Positions 6,031 through 14,699 of a DNA stretch of 32,000 nt are shown piece after piece (the stretch's first letter is position 1; each line of letters opens with the position of its first letter). The notes below the pieces were generated by a model. The model saw only the letters and a list, made by a program, of their open reading frames with translations. It ran no database searches and was not told the origin of the DNA. The DNA comes from Candidatus Baldrarchaeum yapensis (GTDB lineage Archaea > Asgardarchaeota > Baldrarchaeia > Baldrarchaeales > Baldrarchaeaceae). A program made the translations under genes and the position numbers. The stretch covers positions 60,001 to 92,000 of the forward strand of contig JAEOSH010000002.1 of assembly GCA_016840465.1 (NCBI GenBank). Reading direction: 5' to 3'.

Positions 6031-6105
6031 TGGGCCCGGCGGGATTTGAACCCGCGACCCCCGGCTTATCAGGCCGGTGCTCTAACCATGCTGAGCTACG
6101 GGCCC
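6031..6105 (-). tRNA. tRNA-Ile(GAU), no intron, CCA not encoded
   Basis: Acceptor stem GGGCCCG/CGGGCCC, discriminator A, anticodon arm CCGGC-CU GAU AA-GCCGG, T arm GCGGG UUCAAAU CCCGC. Confidence 0.97.
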
Positions 6106-6130
6106 TGAGGTTGCACGTGCCTACACATCC

Positions 6131-6140
6131 ATATATTTTA
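6131..6140 (-). promoter_or_regulatory. Putative TATA box of tRNA-Ile
   Basis: Minus-strand TAAAATATAT lies 26-35 nt upstream of the tRNA 5' end. Confidence 0.4.
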
Positions 6141-6141
6141 G

Positions 6142-6216
6142 TGGTGGACCCGCCGGGATTCGAACCCGGGGCCTCCGCCTTGCGAGGGCGGCGCTCTACC
6201 ACTGAGCTACGGGCCC
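6142..6216 (-). tRNA. tRNA-Ala(CGC), CCA encoded
   Basis: Acceptor stem GGGCCCG/CGGGUCC with the G3:U70 Ala identity pair, anticodon arm CCGCC-CU CGC AA-GGCGG, T loop UUCGAAU, 3' ACCA. Confidence 0.97.
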
Positions 6217-6410: not shown

Positions 6411-8861
6411 CTAAATTTTCAGATATACTGTGTATTCTTTGCCGCCCACTTGAAAGCTTTCCGAGATCATTCCCTCAGTGGTTGGTGGTGTTCCGAAATT
6501 TATACTTCTTGCCTTATGCATTTCCTTTAAGTCCTTTTCGAAGGGCTTGAGGTCTTTCGGCAACCATAACTCGCTTATTGAGGCTCTCAATGATATCTTC
6601 TTTGATTTTTTCAGTTTCCAGACACAACTGTTTGCTTTCAGAAGTATCGGCGTTACATTTGTTAAATCGGTCTCCCACTCCTTTGTCGGCTCAGGAAATC
6701 TCTCCAAATGAATGCTCTTGTTAGGAGAGTAGAGAGTGCGGTATATCTTTTCCGTAATGAAGGGAGTTATCGGAGCGAGCAATTTCAATATCGTCTTTAG
6801 AGCTGTGTGAAGTGCATACCATGCGCCCCTTTGCTCTTCCTCCGAGAATGTTCCGTCTCTATTATAGGCACGTGATTTTACGAGTTCTATGTAATGTGAT
6901 GCAAATGTCTCCCATACGAATGAACGTATGACGTTTGCAGGTATTTGGAAGTTAAGGGCTTCATACCCCTTCTTTGCCTCTTTTATCAATTTGTTCAGTT
7001 CTCCGAGGATCCATCTATCGGCGGGGAGTAATGTGAATCTCTCCTCAGGTATAGGGAACGCTGAGATGAAACGGGCAATGTTCCAGAGTTTTACCAAGAA
7101 TTTAAACGCTCCTTGGAGTCTTTGTTCCGAGAATCTAATATCAGATCCGAGACCAGCCTCCATACTAGACCATAGCCTCATAGCGTCCGCGCCATATTTC
7201 TCTATCAGGGGACGCGGCCATATTATGTTGCCTTTTGACTTAGACATTTTTTCGCCTTTTTCGTCGAGTACCATGCCGCTTATCCATACTTCTCTAAAGG
7301 CGGGCGCCTTGAGTAATAGATATGACCTAAGAATTGTGTAATACAGCCATGTCCGGACAATATCCTTTCCCTGAGGGCGTAAAGAGCACGGAAATGTTCT
7401 TTCAAAGAATTTCTGATCTCTCAGATACCTTAGTATTTGTAAATTGCTGATTCCTGAATCAAACCACGTGTCAAATGTTCTCTCTTCTCCACGGAATCCT
7501 TTTTTCGACCCACAGTGGGGACACTTATCAAAGGGCGGGGGTTCCCTCCATGGCTGATAATACTTTCCCGGTGGAGGCACTACTGCTTTTCCGCATTCCA
7601 AGCAGTACCATAATGGTATCTCCGTTCCGTAGTACCTACGTCTACTGATGGGCCAATCGGTTGTCACAGCATTTATCCAATTTAGTAATAATTGTTTGCT
7701 CTCGGGAGGGAAGAATTTGATCTCATCTACGATCTTCTTTAATTCGGGGAGAAATTCTACCTGCTTGAGATAGTATTCCGGCATTATTATGAACTCTATT
7801 GGATCCTTGGATCGCCAACATATCGGAATTCTATGGATTATTTTTTCTTTCTTTACTACGAGCCCCAGTTTCTCGAGATCCTTTATTATCTCTTCTCGAG
7901 CGCGTTTTACGGGCAGGCCCTTGTACTTGCCCGCAACTTCCGTCATTGTGCCATCGGGGCTTATTGCCGTTATAGGTTTCAACTTCAGCTCCCGATAAAG
8001 GCGTACATCTGTGTAGTCACCGAATGAGCATACCATCATGGCACCTGTTCCAAATTTAGGGTTTGCCTCCTTATGTGGTATTATCGGAACTTCTAAGTTG
8101 TATATCGGCACTATTGCAGTTTTCCCATGGAGTTGCTTGTATCTATCGTCATCGGGATGTACTATCACACATCCACAGGCGCAAAGCAACTCGGGGCGTG
8201 TCGTAGCAATAATTAAGTCCTGCCCTGTCTCTTTCACCTTGAATTTTATATAGACGAGAAGGGTTTCTTCTTCAGCGTACTCGACCTCGGCGTCTGCAAT
8301 TGTTGTCCGGCAGGTAGGACACCAGTTGTTGGGCCTGACGGCTTCGTATATCAGTCCTTTTTTCCAGTATTCTATAAATGTCGCTTGTGTTATTCTTCTA
8401 TATTCAGGACTGTCAGTTCTATAAATGTCCTTATCGTCGAAGGAGTTGCAACTAAGGCCCATTCTTCTGGCGATCCAAATTATGTCTTTTTCATACTCGT
8501 CCAGTAATTTCTTACATAGTTCTATGAACTTTTCGCGGGGCACCTCGAAAAACCTAACATTAAACATTTTCTCTGCTTCTACCTCTATAGGTAAACCGTT
8601 TCTGTCAATCCCAAATGGAAATAAGACTTCATATCCTTGCATGCGCCTAAATCTTGCGATCATGTCTATTTGACCGTAATGTATTGCACCTCCGAGGTGC
8701 CATTTTCCACTTGCATAGGGTGGCGGTGTGTCTATGGAGTATATAGGTTTGTTTGTGTTCTCATTGAACTTGTATGTTTGTTCTTTTTCCCAAAGTTCTA
8801 GTATCTCCTCCTCTATCGAGGGATCCCACCTAGTCTCTCCTAATTTTGGCTTAAACTCCAT
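6411..8861 (-). CDS. valS: Valine--tRNA ligase
   Basis: SIDTPPPYASGKWHLGG (HIGH-like), editing-domain IATTRPELL, WPISRRRYYG, FDTWFDS and KMSKS. SD GGAGAGGTGA upstream. Confidence 0.95.
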   Translation of the reverse strand: MEFKPKLGETRWDPSIEEEILELWEKEQTYKFNENTNKPIYSIDTPPPYASGKWHLGGAIHYGQIDMIARFRRMQGYEVLFPFGIDRNGLPIEVEAEKMFNVRFFEVPREKFIELCKKLLDEYEKDIIWIARRMGLSCNSFDDKDIYRTDSPEYRRITQATFIEYWKKGLIYEAVRPNNWCPTCRTTIADAEVEYAEEETLLVYIKFKVKETGQDLIIATTRPELLCACGCVIVHPDDDRYKQLHGKTAIVPIYNLEVPIIPHKEANPKFGTGAMMVCSFGDYTDVRLYRELKLKPITAISPDGTMTEVAGKYKGLPVKRAREEIIKDLEKLGLVVKKEKIIHRIPICWRSKDPIEFIIMPEYYLKQVEFLPELKKIVDEIKFFPPESKQLLLNWINAVTTDWPISRRRYYGTEIPLWYCLECGKAVVPPPGKYYQPWREPPPFDKCPHCGSKKGFRGEERTFDTWFDSGISNLQILRYLRDQKFFERTFPCSLRPQGKDIVRTWLYYTILRSYLLLKAPAFREVWISGMVLDEKGEKMSKSKGNIIWPRPLIEKYGADAMRLWSSMEAGLGSDIRFSEQRLQGAFKFLVKLWNIARFISAFPIPEERFTLLPADRWILGELNKLIKEAKKGYEALNFQIPANVIRSFVWETFASHYIELVKSRAYNRDGTFSEEEQRGAWYALHTALKTILKLLAPITPFITEKIYRTLYSPNKSIHLERFPEPTKEWETDLTNVTPILLKANSCVWKLKKSKKISLRASISELWLPKDLKPFEKDLKEMHKARSINFGTPPTTEGMISESFQVGGKEYTVYLKI

Positions 8862-9040
8862 ACAAAATCACCTCTCCACGTATCAATCCATGGAGAAACA
8901 GACTGCAATCGCAATCTTTGCCTATATGGAGAAGTAGACTGTTTTTCTCGCGTTGCTACGATCTTGTTAGCAGTTGACTTTACAACACCTCCAACTCACA
9001 TCGGGAACCTCCGTTATTAGGAGGATGTATAAGGTAGATC

Positions 9041-9056
9041 TTTAAATAATTTTTTA
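9041..9056. promoter_or_regulatory. Putative TATA element between divergent valS and pyrH
   Basis: TTTAAATA on the plus strand. On the minus strand it reads AAAAAATTATTTAAAG (A-rich BRE-like stretch followed by TATA). Confidence 0.5.
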
Positions 9057-9123
9057 CCCTTGATGTTCGGGCATGCATACATATCCAAGGAGCAATGTAA
9101 CAGGAGAGAGTCAGGTGTGATGC

Positions 9124-9846
9124 ATGAAGAGGGTAGTGATAAAGATAGGCGGTTCTATAATCTTCCGGTCAGATGGAACCTTGAATGATGATCTGATGAG
9201 GAAGTACGCGATCGTAATTAGAGATTTATTAAAGGACGATATCTTGCCCTCTATTGTGACCGGTGGTGGCATTATGAGTAAAAAATACGTAAAATGGGCT
9301 AAAAACTTCGGCGCTAACGATGCATTATGTGATATGCTTGGAATAACGCTATCTCGCGCAAACGCCTTACTACTGATATCTGCTCTTGGAGATATTGCAT
9401 ACCCAACCGTTCCAACATCCTTAGAAGAAGCATTGAAGGCTATAGCATCGGGGAAGGTCGTAGTAATGGGAGGACTTCAACCAGGGCAATCAACAAACGC
9501 CGTAGCAGCACTTTTAGCGGAAAGTATTGGTGCTGAAATGCTGATAATCGCTACAGACGTAGATGGAATTTACAGTGCTCCGCCTGAGATGTCCGATGCA
9601 AAATTGCTTAAAAGGATTTCGCCAGGCGGGTTGCTGTCGTTAATACTCAAGCATTCGAGTTTTGAAGCGGGAAAGTACCAGTTGTTTGACCCACTTGCTG
9701 TTCTAATTATACAGAGAGCCGGAATAGTTGTGAGAGTAATCAACGGAATTGATCCCGAGAATGTAGTCAGAGTTCTTAGGGGCGAGGACATTGGTACGTT
9801 AGTACTGCCTGAAGACAAGCGATATGGTGCGGGGGGTGGGATTTGA
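9124..9846 (+). CDS. pyrH: Uridylate (UMP) kinase
   Basis: VIKIGGS, IVTGGG, GGLQPGQSTNAVAA, ATDVDGIY and GEDIGT. SD AGGTG upstream. Confidence 0.95.
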   Translation: MKRVVIKIGGSIIFRSDGTLNDDLMRKYAIVIRDLLKDDILPSIVTGGGIMSKKYVKWAKNFGANDALCDMLGITLSRANALLLISALGDIAYPTVPTSLEEALKAIASGKVVVMGGLQPGQSTNAVAALLAESIGAEMLIIATDVDGIYSAPPEMSDAKLLKRISPGGLLSLILKHSSFEAGKYQLFDPLAVLIIQRAGIVVRVINGIDPENVVRVLRGEDIGTLVLPEDKRYGAGGGI

Positions 9847-9999: not shown

Positions 10000-11216
<1,217 letters not shown>

Positions 11217-12579: not shown

Positions 12580-13288
12580 ACAGATCGCCGTGTGTTCTTC
12601 GTAATGAAATTATACGCGCCTTACATTCATGTCTCTCGGACGAGTTAATAACGTTTTTCAGGATAACATAACCTGCGAGATCCAGTACTTTTTTCGCTTT
12701 GTCTATGAGAACAGTGTCGCTTGTTGCGACTACGTCTCCTGATTCCAAAATTTCCCTATCAGGACTTTTTGAAGTCTTTGCTGTTCCTCTTATAGAATAC
12801 TCCATCAGCATTTTTCTCATCATAGCTGCAAGTTCGCCACTTCTGCTTATAGGTTCGTCTAGTATTATTGTTGCCGTTTTCGGTTGTAGTTCTTTTATTG
12901 CTAGGATCATGAGCAGAAGCGCTCTTTTTGTTGCCTCAGAAATTCTGTACTTTCGAAATACACCTGCAATGTCGCGTATAAAACCGTCATCGCATAAGAG
13001 GAGGAGCCTGCCGAGCAAAAAGCTTTCTATGGTTATTAAGACATTATATCCGTCTACTGATAACGTGTACCTTGGTAGTGTGGATGGAGAGACCTTTTTT
13101 ATAATCCTCATTCGCGCTATTCTGAACGGAAAAACTGCACGTAAGAGTATATAACGCTCATTTTCGGATAGACGATAATGTTCACTTACTATTCTTAAAG
13201 CTACATGTTGCTTATATCCTCTATGCAATAAATATCTATAATCTTTTGCAGCCTCAATAAGTCTTGCGGGTGAAAAAATTTCAGACAC
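12554..13288 (-). CDS. DUF434 domain protein with a NYN/PIN-like C-terminal domain
   Basis: EAAKDYRYLLHRGY...HYRL...R..L.R (DUF434 pattern), VDGYNVLITIES, DDGFIRD, LDEP and VATSD. GTG at 13288 has SD GGTGA 7 nt upstream. The ORF-track extension to 13471 overlaps rpl12. Confidence 0.8.
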   Translation of the reverse strand: MSEIFSPARLIEAAKDYRYLLHRGYKQHVALRIVSEHYRLSENERYILLRAVFPFRIARMRIIKKVSPSTLPRYTLSVDGYNVLITIESFLLGRLLLLCDDGFIRDIAGVFRKYRISEATKRALLLMILAIKELQPKTATIILDEPISRSGELAAMMRKMLMEYSIRGTAKTSKSPDREILESGDVVATSDTVLIDKAKKVLDLAGYVILKNVINSSERHECKARIISLRRTHGDLYVGFGKNK

Positions 13289-13328
13289 CAGTAAATCACC
13301 AAGATGAGTGGGAAAGATGAAAAATACC

Positions 13329-13646
13329 TTAACCGAATAGCGCTCCAAGCCCTGTAATCTCTTCCTCTTCCTTCTTCTCTTCTTTTTCCTTCTTTTCCTC
13401 TTCTGCCTTTGCCGGAGCTTTTTCTTCTTCAGCAGGAGCAGAAGGCGCAGTAGATGCGATGGGAGCGACAAAAGATGCGCTCTTTATGGCCTCTTCTATG
13501 TTTATCTCACCTATTGCTGCGACGAAGGCCTTTATCCTAGCAGCATCCGCCGATATGCCTGCGGCTTCGAGGACCTTTCTGAGGTTTTCTTCATTTATTT
13601 CCTTTCCGGCCCGATGCAATAGCAGTGTTGCATACACATATTCCAT
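13329..13646 (-). CDS. rpl12: Ribosomal stalk protein P1 (L12p)
   Basis: [22 protein letters not shown], an Ala-rich hinge and an acidic tail ending GLGALFG. Confidence 0.97.
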
Positions 13647-13667
13647 TGCATGCACACCTCCTTAACA

Positions 13668-14699
13668 TTAACCAAACAATGCACCTAACCCTGTTATTTC
13701 TTCTTCCTCTTTCTTTTCCTCTTCCTCTTTGACTTCTTCCTCCTTTATTTCTTTTTCTCTTTTAACCTCTTCGACCGGGGAAGGTGCCTCTACCGCAATC
13801 TCCTCAGGTATCAACTCGGGGTTGCGTTCCTTTATTTTCAGTGCGAGTGATCTAGCCTCCATATCGGCTTTTGCAAAGAGTTGTTGCAGAACCTCCGGAA
13901 CCGGTAGGGCTACCGATAATGCAAGACTGTAAGCTTCCATATGGGCCTTCTGGAGAAGTGCAGGCATGATTTCACTGATCGGCAGTGCTGCGTTCAAAGC
14001 CAAGTTTAGGGCTTCTTGTTCAGCTTGAGAAATCATTTCTTTGAACTTATCGATATTAGGGAGAAGATCTTCGCCCTTTAGTATTATCCCGTCATCATAT
14101 GCTGCATGCATGGTCAATCCTACGGTTATTGGTTCGATTCCCAGTCTTGAGAGAATTATGGCAACTTTTCTAGAAATCCTCTCTCCTGCTTTTACAACTA
14201 CAGTGTCTTTGGTGACCCATATGGTTCCTGATTCCACCCTAGTGGGTATCCCTAGTTCACTGAGTTCGCTTATCACAGGTCCTGGGGGTATCCCCGTGTT
14301 TCCGGCTGGAACTATAATGTCATTCGGAGCAATTTGGCCTGCCTTCGCCGGCGCGCGCATCTTGTTCTTTTCTAGAAATAAATTGAGTTTCACGGGATTC
14401 TCGTTTGTTAATATAAGTGCGGTTTGACCTCTTACTTCATCTGCAAGTTTCGATATTCCCTGTTTAAACTGTTCAGCCCTTCTTAAGGCTATCTTTATGA
14501 ATGTGTTCTTCGATACTTTAATGATCGCCTTATCTCTGAGTGCAAACCTTAATTTTTGTAATTGAGCGGCACCTATTCCTTCGATCTTAGTAATACCTAC
14601 AGCCTTGAACTTCTTAATTAGTTCCAACAACTCCCTTACCTTTTCTACTTTCCTCTTCGGAACTGGCCTGCCTTGCCGCGTTAATTCTACCTGTTGCAT
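13668..14699 (-). CDS. rplP0: Ribosomal protein P0 (uL10)
   Basis: QLQKLR, KVSKNTFIKIAL, APAKAGQIAPNDIIVPAGNTG.PPGP and an acidic tail ending GLGALFG. SD GAGGTGA supports ATG 14699. Confidence 0.97.
   Translation of the reverse strand: MQQVELTRQGRPVPKRKVEKVRELLELIKKFKAVGITKIEGIGAAQLQKLRFALRDKAIIKVSKNTFIKIALRRAEQFKQGISKLADEVRGQTALILTNENPVKLNLFLEKNKMRAPAKAGQIAPNDIIVPAGNTGIPPGPVISELSELGIPTRVESGTIWVTKDTVVVKAGERISRKVAIILSRLGIEPITVGLTMHAAYDDGIILKGEDLLPNIDKFKEMISQAEQEALNLALNAALPISEIMPALLQKAHMEAYSLALSVALPVPEVLQQLFAKADMEARSLALKIKERNPELIPEEIAVEAPSPVEEVKREKEIKEEEVKEEEEKKEEEEITGLGALFG

Follow-up and report, generated by a model that had tools for sequence, protein, structure and literature searches.

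The valS locus and the leaders compared

The window analysed in this work is a stretch of 32 000 nucleotides from the genome of Candidatus Baldrarchaeum yapensis, an Asgard archaeon of the Baldrarchaeia, and all positions below refer to it unless another contig is named. It carries on its minus strand the gene of valine--tRNA ligase, valS, which is separated from a divergent neighbour by a spacer of 262 bp (8862-9123). The genes and the ribosome-binding element of valS are the following:

6411-8861, minus strand: valS, valine--tRNA ligase of 816 amino acids; Pfam domains tRNA-synt_1 and Anticodon_1, homologues named valine--tRNA ligase
8868-8872, minus strand: valS Shine-Dalgarno (SD) sequence GGTGA, kept in all relatives
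9124-9846, plus strand: divergent neighbour of valS, amino-acid-kinase family

The valS SD starts 11 nt before the ATG, at the peak observed for the genome (10-11).

The B. yapensis genome is a MAG of 2.27 Mb, 96% complete, and the sole member of its family. Its kin at the level of the order are four genomes of one genus (the sister genus below) and no others. Neither the genomes, the metagenome contigs nor a set of 5.8 billion proteins contain a closer relative of B. yapensis, and the next ValRS in this protein set is 75% identical. The valS leader alignment was built with three sister-genus genomes and eight metagenome contigs, and comprises 10 distinct sequences in all. Reading frames were analysed in 18 leaders (eight of valS, five of ileS and five of leuS). 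The sampling covers one order, represented by B. yapensis and one sister genus with about three sub-lineages per gene; the sequences are related, and joint statistics over the 18 leaders are consequently overstated. Genome statistics are based on crude gene models (ORFs of 150 aa or more, whose starts were assigned by their SD).

A variant strain is present in a hydrothermal-vent metagenome (run X6), with flanking coding DNA 86-92% identical to that of the window (8634-8873 and 9114-9230). There is no contig of this strain over the valS leader among the contigs of four DNA runs; its leader may have diverged more than its genes, or may be unassembled. The runs listed as containing DNA of this uncultured lineage include none of RNA.

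Secondary structure of the valS leader

The leader contains a direct repeat and several hairpins close to the valS ribosome-binding site (RBS):

8926-8941, minus strand: repeat copy 1 (CAGTCTACTTCTCCAT), with the anti-SD-like CTTCTCCAT; 14/16 identical to copy 2
8890-8905, minus strand: repeat copy 2 (CAGTCTGTTTCTCCAT), the 5' arm of the SD hairpin
8900-8917, minus strand: small hairpin AGATTGC-GATT-GCAGTCT, present in the MFE and centroid folds
8869-8900, minus strand: SD-sequestering hairpin of 12 pairs, lineage-specific, lying within the +1 conduit ORF described below

The first-pass annotation had proposed that mutually exclusive helices at the valS RBS form an RNA-only switch, a sequestrator and an anti-sequestrator responding to tRNA-Val charging or to ValRS. 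All the elements on which it was built (the helices, the 16-nt repeat and the TATA-like word) are indeed found at their positions. The 8-bp helix 8896-8889/8880-8873 encloses an 8-nt loop and extends to the 12-pair hairpin 8900-8869, which is followed by UUUUGU, and the valS SD is sequestered in B. yapensis. The alternative pairing of GAGAAA..CAG (8949-8939) with CTGTTTCTC (8901-8893) is likewise possible; it would consist of 6+3 pairs with a 2-nt bulge and is nearly isoenergetic with the SD hairpin in B. yapensis (-13.4 versus -13.3 kcal/mol). The two repeat copies (8941-8926 and 8905-8890) match as had been described, and copy 1 pairs with the valS AUGGAG in the MFE fold, in B. yapensis only. 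A further small hairpin, GTTG..CAAC, is confirmed at 8986-8973.

The folding energy of the valS RBS window (51 nt) is -15.8 kcal/mol, against a genome mean of -8.3 +/- 3.5, so that the hairpin over the RBS ranks within the top 2.6% among the 1607 RBS windows taken from the B. yapensis genome. The whole leader (171 nt) has a folding z of -1.9. The structure of the valS leader is real and moderately beyond chance, somewhat unusual and not extreme. The ileS RBS window of B. yapensis reaches -3.8 kcal/mol.

The valS RBS windows of the sister genus reach only -2.7 to -8.4 kcal/mol, and the RNAalifold consensus of its valS leaders (-0.8 kcal/mol) reveals no convincing consensus structure. At the place aligned with the 8900-8917 hairpin, the leaders of the sister genus form an AU-rich one. 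A pairing of CUUUUCAC with the uORF SD (see below) or the valS SD, drawn in the sister genus, was rejected as it has no counterpart in B. yapensis.

The first-pass annotation had also remarked that no canonical T-box consensus is visible in the leader. This agrees with the Rfam searches: no family matches the region 8800-9180 on either strand even at E <= 10, the T-box family (RF00230) included, and the scan of the whole window at gathering thresholds returns tRNAs only. An RNA-only sequestrator/anti-sequestrator that binds uncharged tRNA-Val or ValRS, in a T-box-like or thrS-like manner, could make use of two near-isoenergetic helices and of an SD hairpin ranking in the top 2.6% of the genome, but it is extremely improbable when the helices are absent from the sister genus, no Rfam family matches, and by eye no tRNA-like or specifier/T-box element is conserved between the genera. 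The annotation had itself made this switch depend on the conservation of the helices in relatives. The other part of its proposal stands: the leader is most likely regulatory, and charging of tRNA-Val is most likely the signal.

A conserved short open reading frame upstream of valS

Upstream of these structures, the leader contains a promoter element and a short upstream ORF (uORF) with its own SD:

9040-9055, minus strand: TATA-like promoter element AAAAAATTATTTAAAG, with the core TTATTTAA at 9049-9042; aligned to AAAAWTTTAATTAA, which is conserved in the sister genus
9007-9012, minus strand: uORF SD GGAGGT, invariant in the 10 distinct leaders
8967-8999, minus strand: uORF GTG AGT TGG AGG TGT TGT AAA GTC AAC TGC TAA (M S W R C C K V N C stop)
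8986-8992, minus strand: internal SD-like GGAGGTG within the uORF, invariant

The length of about 155 nt suggested earlier for the leader is supported by the alignment of the TATA-like element with the TATA of the sister genus and by its normal distance to the start of the uORF (43-50 nt to the GTG, while TATA-like words in the genome peak 40-60 nt before starts). There is no TATA-like word in the usual window before the valS ATG of B. yapensis. The sister genus has an AT-rich motif, [TC]A[AT]AAAAT, about 55 nt before valS, which could be a second promoter. The GGAGG of the uORF starts 13 nt before its GTG, inside the genome-wide range of 12-14, and this SD is complementary to the 16S 3' end (GGAUCACCUCCU) of the B. 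yapensis genome.

The order of the conserved elements is the same in all leaders: the TATA; about 30 nt further on, GGAGGTT; six variable nucleotides; the GTG; one variable codon; the core TGG AGG TGY TSY AAA GTC; two variable codons; and TAA or TAG. Across the order the uORF has 10 codons, encoding M-x-W-R-C-S/C-K-V-x-x-stop. Its start, codons 3-8 and its in-frame stop are kept in all relatives, with variation at codon 2, at codons 9-10 and in the flanks, and the synonymous changes between relatives are TGT/TGC and TAA/TAG. The sequences diverge past the stop, and the conserved islands coincide exactly with the SD, the start, the core and the in-frame stop.

An out-of-frame ATG-TGA start-stop overlaps the uORF GTG in B. 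yapensis (GATGTGAGT; 9001-8996, minus strand). ATG TGA or GTG TGA overlaps also occur at some sister-genus leuS uORFs, and they are not kept in all leaders.

The ileS and leuS leaders

In these genomes, ileS and leuS are preceded by leaders laid out like that of valS, in which an Ile or a Leu codon, respectively, takes the matching position. What is kept between the two genera is a TATA, an SD placed 13-14 nt ahead of a GTG, and the uORF:

Contig C32, 19600-19800: ileS leader of B. yapensis; uORF, over the two genera, GTG AGG GAT nnn MAA ATY, of 14-15 codons, with Ile at codon 6
Contig C84, 49470-49640: leuS leader of B. yapensis; uORF, over the two genera, GTG AGG GRT nnn ATT CTC, of 7-12 codons, with Leu at codon 6

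The encoded peptides begin with M R D x K/Q I for ileS, where ATC/ATT is a synonymous change, and M R D/G x I L for leuS. There is one conserved Ile codon in the former and one conserved Leu codon in the latter. In the uORFs of valS, ileS and leuS, the codon of the enzyme's own amino acid (the cognate codon) is the last conserved codon or, for ileS, the last but one.

The conserved block might instead be an untranslated DNA operator or an RNA site for a protein such as an Lrp-type regulator or ValRS. The conservation is at the nucleotide level and includes third codon positions, the GGAGGT sequence forms a direct repeat with 20 bp spacing, and the ileS and leuS cores allow small hairpins. Such a site is very unlikely, however, as the block has no dyad symmetry and differs between valS and ileS/leuS, its islands are exactly those of an SD, a start and a stop, and the stop-to-stop and Ile ATC/ATT changes preserve the coding meaning. 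It would also leave the open +1 frame, described in the following section, unexplained.

An open +1 frame between the uORF and the synthetase start

The region between the uORF and valS is covered by a frame that has no start codon of its own:

8840-8977, minus strand: +1-frame conduit ORF of 45 codons; stop TAG at 8842-8840, 19 nt past the A of the valS ATG

In all eight valS leaders this +1 frame is without a stop, whereas each of the other frames has 2-5 stops. Over the 18 leaders, there are 66 stops in frame 0, none in the +1 frame and 72 in the +2 frame between the cognate codon and the start of the synthetase. In 18/18 leaders, 38-67 codons can be read in the +1 frame from the cognate codon before a stop is reached; this stop falls at +1 to +26 relative to the synthetase start, except in one leader, where it falls at +65. 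In valS, the end is an ATGA overlap in most sister-genus leaders and lies at +19 in B. yapensis. In ileS the frame is open for 51-67 codons and ends at +19/+20 after the start in 5/5 genomes; in leuS it is open for 38-41 codons and ends at +8 to +26, the +65 leader being the one exception. The 0 frame is closed 1-9 codons after the cognate codon, and the +2 frame within 3-15 codons in 17/18 leaders, the exception being the ileS leader of B. yapensis, in which it stays open.

The shuffle P of the open +1 frame ranges from 0.005 to 0.29 per sequence; it is 0.005-0.06 in most of the AT-rich sister-genus leaders (0.10 in one) and 0.08-0.29 in B. yapensis. The identity of the spacers is 35-48% between the genera and 50-69% between sister-genus sub-lineages. 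The two other frames contain 65 distinct stop columns, and these are mostly lineage-specific; in spacers so diverged, this indicates that stops turn over freely, the +1 frame excepted.

No start codon of the +1 frame has an SD in front of it, and several leaders have no ATG, GTG or TTG in it at all. In most leaders a TGA inside GTGA closes the frame just upstream. It would therefore be reachable only from the uORF. In valS of B. yapensis, there is no ATG, GTG or TTG in the +1 frame before the candidate shift site described below, and the TGA inside GTGAGT closes the frame upstream.

Two observations on this frame count against a frameshift sensor. An open non-main frame of at least 90 nt before a gene is common in B. 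yapensis taken alone (162/941 genes). The cognate codon is not depleted in the conduit frames, with 1-3 Val, 2-3 Ile and 4 Leu codons (counted by eye in part of the set), and a starved ribosome in the conduit frame would meet the same codon again.

The conduit could also be translated as an upstream cistron that sets a basal level of synthetase translation, by constitutive frameshifting or non-canonical initiation, and without any sensor of charging. This would account for a +1 frame that is open and ends at the synthetase start, and for the ATGA stop/start overlap in sister-genus valS. It is decidedly unlikely, as the match of codon and synthetase in 3/3 genes would then be a coincidence, with a probability roughly estimated at 1e-3 to 1e-4, and as the frame lacks an SD-preceded start codon.

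Anatomy of the candidate shift site

The passage from the uORF into the +1 frame is predicted to take place at the end of the conserved core:

8976-8981, minus strand: candidate shift site AAA GTC, with the P-site Lys codon and the A-site Val sensor codon; invariant, without synonymous change

A +1 slip in valS would let the tRNA on AAA re-pair with AAG and bring TCA (Ser) into the A site. The P-site codon, next before the cognate one, is AAA in valS and in B. yapensis ileS, CAA in sister-genus ileS and AUU in leuS. Re-pairing in the +1 frame is full for AAA_G and AAA_A and reaches 2/3 positions for CAA_A and AUU_C; the imperfect P-site re-pairing of CAA and AUU counts against a frameshift. 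The cognate codons are C-ending, with one U-ending, and in 17/18 leaders a +1 slip would place UCN (Ser) in the A site. There is no synonymous change at GTC and CTC and almost none at ATC (one ATT), and we attribute this near-absence of synonymous change at C-ending codons to the UCN codon that follows from them in the +1 frame.

The internal GGAGG of the valS uORF starts 11 nt before the AAA, one nucleotide short of the genome optimum of 12. The same register is found in the three genes, with GGAGG or (U)GAGG starting 11 nt before the P-site codon, while SD spacings in the genome peak at 12 and range over 12-14. A +1 slip would restore the optimal spacing of 12. The ileS and leuS cores are clearly homologous, and the 11-nt register thus amounts to at most two independent observations. 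Comparison of the leaders shows four features to be conserved in the order: the uORF, its cognate codon, the register of the SD and an open +1 frame.

This anatomy was compared with that of two known types of control. In a leader-peptide attenuator, the regulated gene is preceded by a short ORF with its own SD, and the valS leader contains one (8999-8967). Several or tandem cognate codons are expected in it; we find a single conserved Val codon, at position 8. Its mutually exclusive helices, one of which acts as a terminator or SD sequestrator, should be conserved, and here they are present in B. yapensis only. The prfB-type frameshift has an A-site codon tied to the regulated product, as do these leaders, in which GUC precedes valS, AUC or AUU precedes ileS and CUC precedes leuS, each conserved; decoding at this codon is presumably rate-limiting. 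As in prfB, the 0 frame closes soon and the +1 frame is open up to the product, and an SD-like sequence stands upstream at a sub-optimal, short spacing, with the anti-SD present in the 16S 3' end.

Classical leader-peptide control without a frameshift, in which a ribosome stalled at the single Val codon alters folding or termination at a U-tract or by FttA (as in the pheM-pheST, trpL or ermCL type), has several points in its favour. These are the conserved SD-led uORF with its cognate codon, the mutually exclusive helices and the terminator-like hairpin with UUUU before valS in B. yapensis, the T4-T6 tracts in the sister-genus leaders, and the FttA polarity known in archaea (PMC12548453). We nevertheless consider it unlikely. 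It leaves unexplained both the stop-free +1 frame in 18 diverged leaders and the scarce or absent synonymous change at the cognate codons; moreover, the helices lack conservation and are not the same before valS, ileS and leuS, and there is one cognate codon rather than a run.

A probable frameshift sensor of tRNA charging

On the basis of the conserved arrangement, the valS leader is probably a prfB-like sensor of tRNA charging, in which a hungry codon induces a +1 frameshift that is coupled to the translation of the synthetase. What we infer is that the ribosome shifts frame, that it does so according to the charging of the tRNA, and that its passage is coupled to synthetase translation. The mRNA would start about 155 nt upstream of the gene, at the conserved TATA promoter, and would first encode the SD-led, GTG-initiated uORF of 10 codons. 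With Lys AAA in the P site and Val GUC in the A site, the pairing of GGAGGUG with the 16S 3' end would be closer by one nucleotide than is optimal. When Val-tRNA(Val) is ample, GUC would be read and translation would terminate two codons later. When it is scarce, the paused ribosome would slip by +1 (AAA to AAG) and read UCA (Ser). The shifted ribosome would then translate the 45-codon, start-less conduit frame (8977-8840) through both leader hairpins, that of the SD included, and would stop 19 nt past the valS AUG. Its passage would open the RBS and/or permit termination-reinitiation, giving more ValRS when the product of this enzyme is short. The SD hairpin would be a lineage-specific lock, opened by the frameshifted ribosome. 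The ileS and leuS genes of the same organisms would have the same device, with AUC/AUU and CUC.

A short spacing of the SD to the P-site codon promotes +1 frameshifting in prfB (Devaraj & Fredrick 2010, as cited in PMC10798248). Both RNA unfolding and reinitiation are established modes of translational coupling, a phenomenon also known in Haloferax (PMC12548453). The gain to be expected from coupling is affected by two features of the sister genus that count against the model: its valS RBS is unstructured, and a possible second promoter lies about 55 nt upstream. Taking the three genes together, the pattern of codons and frames tips somewhat towards the wider view that Baldrarchaeia gauge the charging of individual tRNAs by a leader mini-ORF with one hungry codon and a +1 shift into a start-less conduit that leads to the synthetase start.

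Comparison with known regulatory systems

The nearest likeness is with bacterial prfB, which encodes release factor 2 (shift site CUU_UGA_C, with the upstream SD-like AGGGGG). On the model, the two would share an A-site codon decoded slowly, at a rate set by the regulated gene's product; a P-site codon that may re-pair in the +1 frame, which in these leaders is full for AAA only; an internal SD-like motif at too short a distance from this codon; a stop in the 0 frame shortly past the site; and negative feedback. The valS leader differs in that it would sense aminoacyl-tRNA at a sense codon, whereas prfB senses a release factor at a stop; in that the shift would take place in a separate leader mini-ORF, and the non-conserved +1 conduit ends at the start of the gene instead of forming its body; and in that its host is an archaeon. 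A further difference counts against the model: the spacer after the SD motif is 4-5 nt in the valS, ileS and leuS leaders and 3 nt in prfB.

The leaders of E. coli pheM-pheST, trpL, ilvL and leuL also have an SD-led mini-ORF with cognate codons, by which the ribosome gauges tRNA charging. Unlike them, the valS leader has one cognate codon and no conserved terminator/antiterminator helices, and its output appears to be translational (frame change and coupling) instead of transcription termination. The T-box riboswitch (RF00230) likewise controls synthetases by tRNA charging, but there the RNA binds the tRNA directly; its hallmarks are a stem I with specifier loop, the conserved 14-nt T-box sequence and a terminator/antiterminator or sequestrator, and the Rfam scans show no such element in the valS leader.

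Ty1 (CUU_AGG_C) is a case of hungry-codon +1 frameshifting, and a +1 frameshift also operates in antizyme OAZ1. These and the starvation-induced frameshifts have in common with the proposed device a +1 slip triggered by slow A-site decoding, and in antizyme the frequency of frameshifting also reports a metabolite and closes a feedback loop. None of them, however, is known to sense the charging of one tRNA in the control of its own synthetase, or is known from cellular archaeal genes. To our knowledge, the regulation of aminoacyl-tRNA synthetases in archaea is largely unknown, and we know of no T-box or leader-peptide attenuator described in archaea. Leader-peptide attenuators have been predicted for actinobacterial leuS and trpS (PMC1262725). 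Starvation-induced frameshifts are named in a 2021 review of archaeal recoding, which has the -1 case of fucA1 as the only one among cellular archaeal genes (PMC8211752). Our literature search found no published description of such a frameshift sensor of charging before synthetase genes.

If the model is correct, T-boxes and leader-peptide attenuation would be joined by a third general way of achieving synthetase feedback, and cellular archaeal genes would have their first regulatory +1 frameshift. The ribosome itself would read tRNA charging through a change of frame, and the feedback frameshift of prfB and hungry-codon slippage would be joined in a new sensor. The cassette is compact (about 45 nt) and can be tested with reporters. 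It would also be a warning for annotation, as start-less open frames in long leaders can be functional.

Distribution of the layout and other loci

An annotation-free scan of about 1800 genes of B. yapensis for a TATA, an SD and an ORF of 3-30 codons at least 50 nt upstream, with a spacer of at least 110 nt, returned 21 loci, and ileS, leuS and valS account for three of these. The rest were taken as chance; the seven largest annotated among them (an AMP-binding enzyme, amidohydrolases, an acyl-CoA dehydrogenase and others) display no amino-acid logic. The layout of TATA, SD and uORF is absent from eight other synthetase genes of B. yapensis. The scan also brought up an SD-led ORF of 11 codons, MLFCQYPLPRS (with Phe and Tyr codons), on the minus strand of contig C85, about 290 nt before a gene of 297 aa (13195-14088).

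The 18-nt uORF core was searched in 400 genomes of the phylum with up to two mismatches (<=2): exact matches occur only in the order, and the rest are at control level. The second core matches (genomes G001 and G003) and the matches to a back-translation of WRCxKV lie inside coding genes and were rejected. In Hermod-like and other Asgard lineages, the valS leaders are short or unrelated, with neither the uORF block nor a long open non-main frame. Likewise, 26 ileS upstream regions from seven other Asgard families lack the layout of TATA, SD and short ORF, under strict criteria that would miss other designs. Among the lineages searched, the putative valS device seems specific to Baldrarchaeales.

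The metG gene of B. yapensis has a short leader, and its MetRS frame has no ATG, GTG or TTG before the conserved N-terminus (contig C84, about 10790-10850, minus strand). A GTG-led ORF of 10 codons in another frame contains A_AAA_AAC, a canonical -1 slippery heptamer, and its -1 frame is that of MetRS. This start reflects either a homopolymer assembly error or -1 recoding.

ARAGORN detects 24 tRNA genes in the B. yapensis genome, without tRNA-Val(GAC) or tRNA-Lys(UUU), which counts against the sensor model; the census is too partial for isoacceptor calls in this incomplete, intron-rich genome. Two tRNA genes, tRNA-Ala(CGC) and tRNA-Ile(GAU), lie at 6031-6216 of the window, minus strand, 195-380 nt downstream of the valS stop, and may be co-transcribed with valS. 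The second of them, tRNA-Ile(GAU), is the reader of the candidate AUC/AUU sensor codon of the ileS leader.
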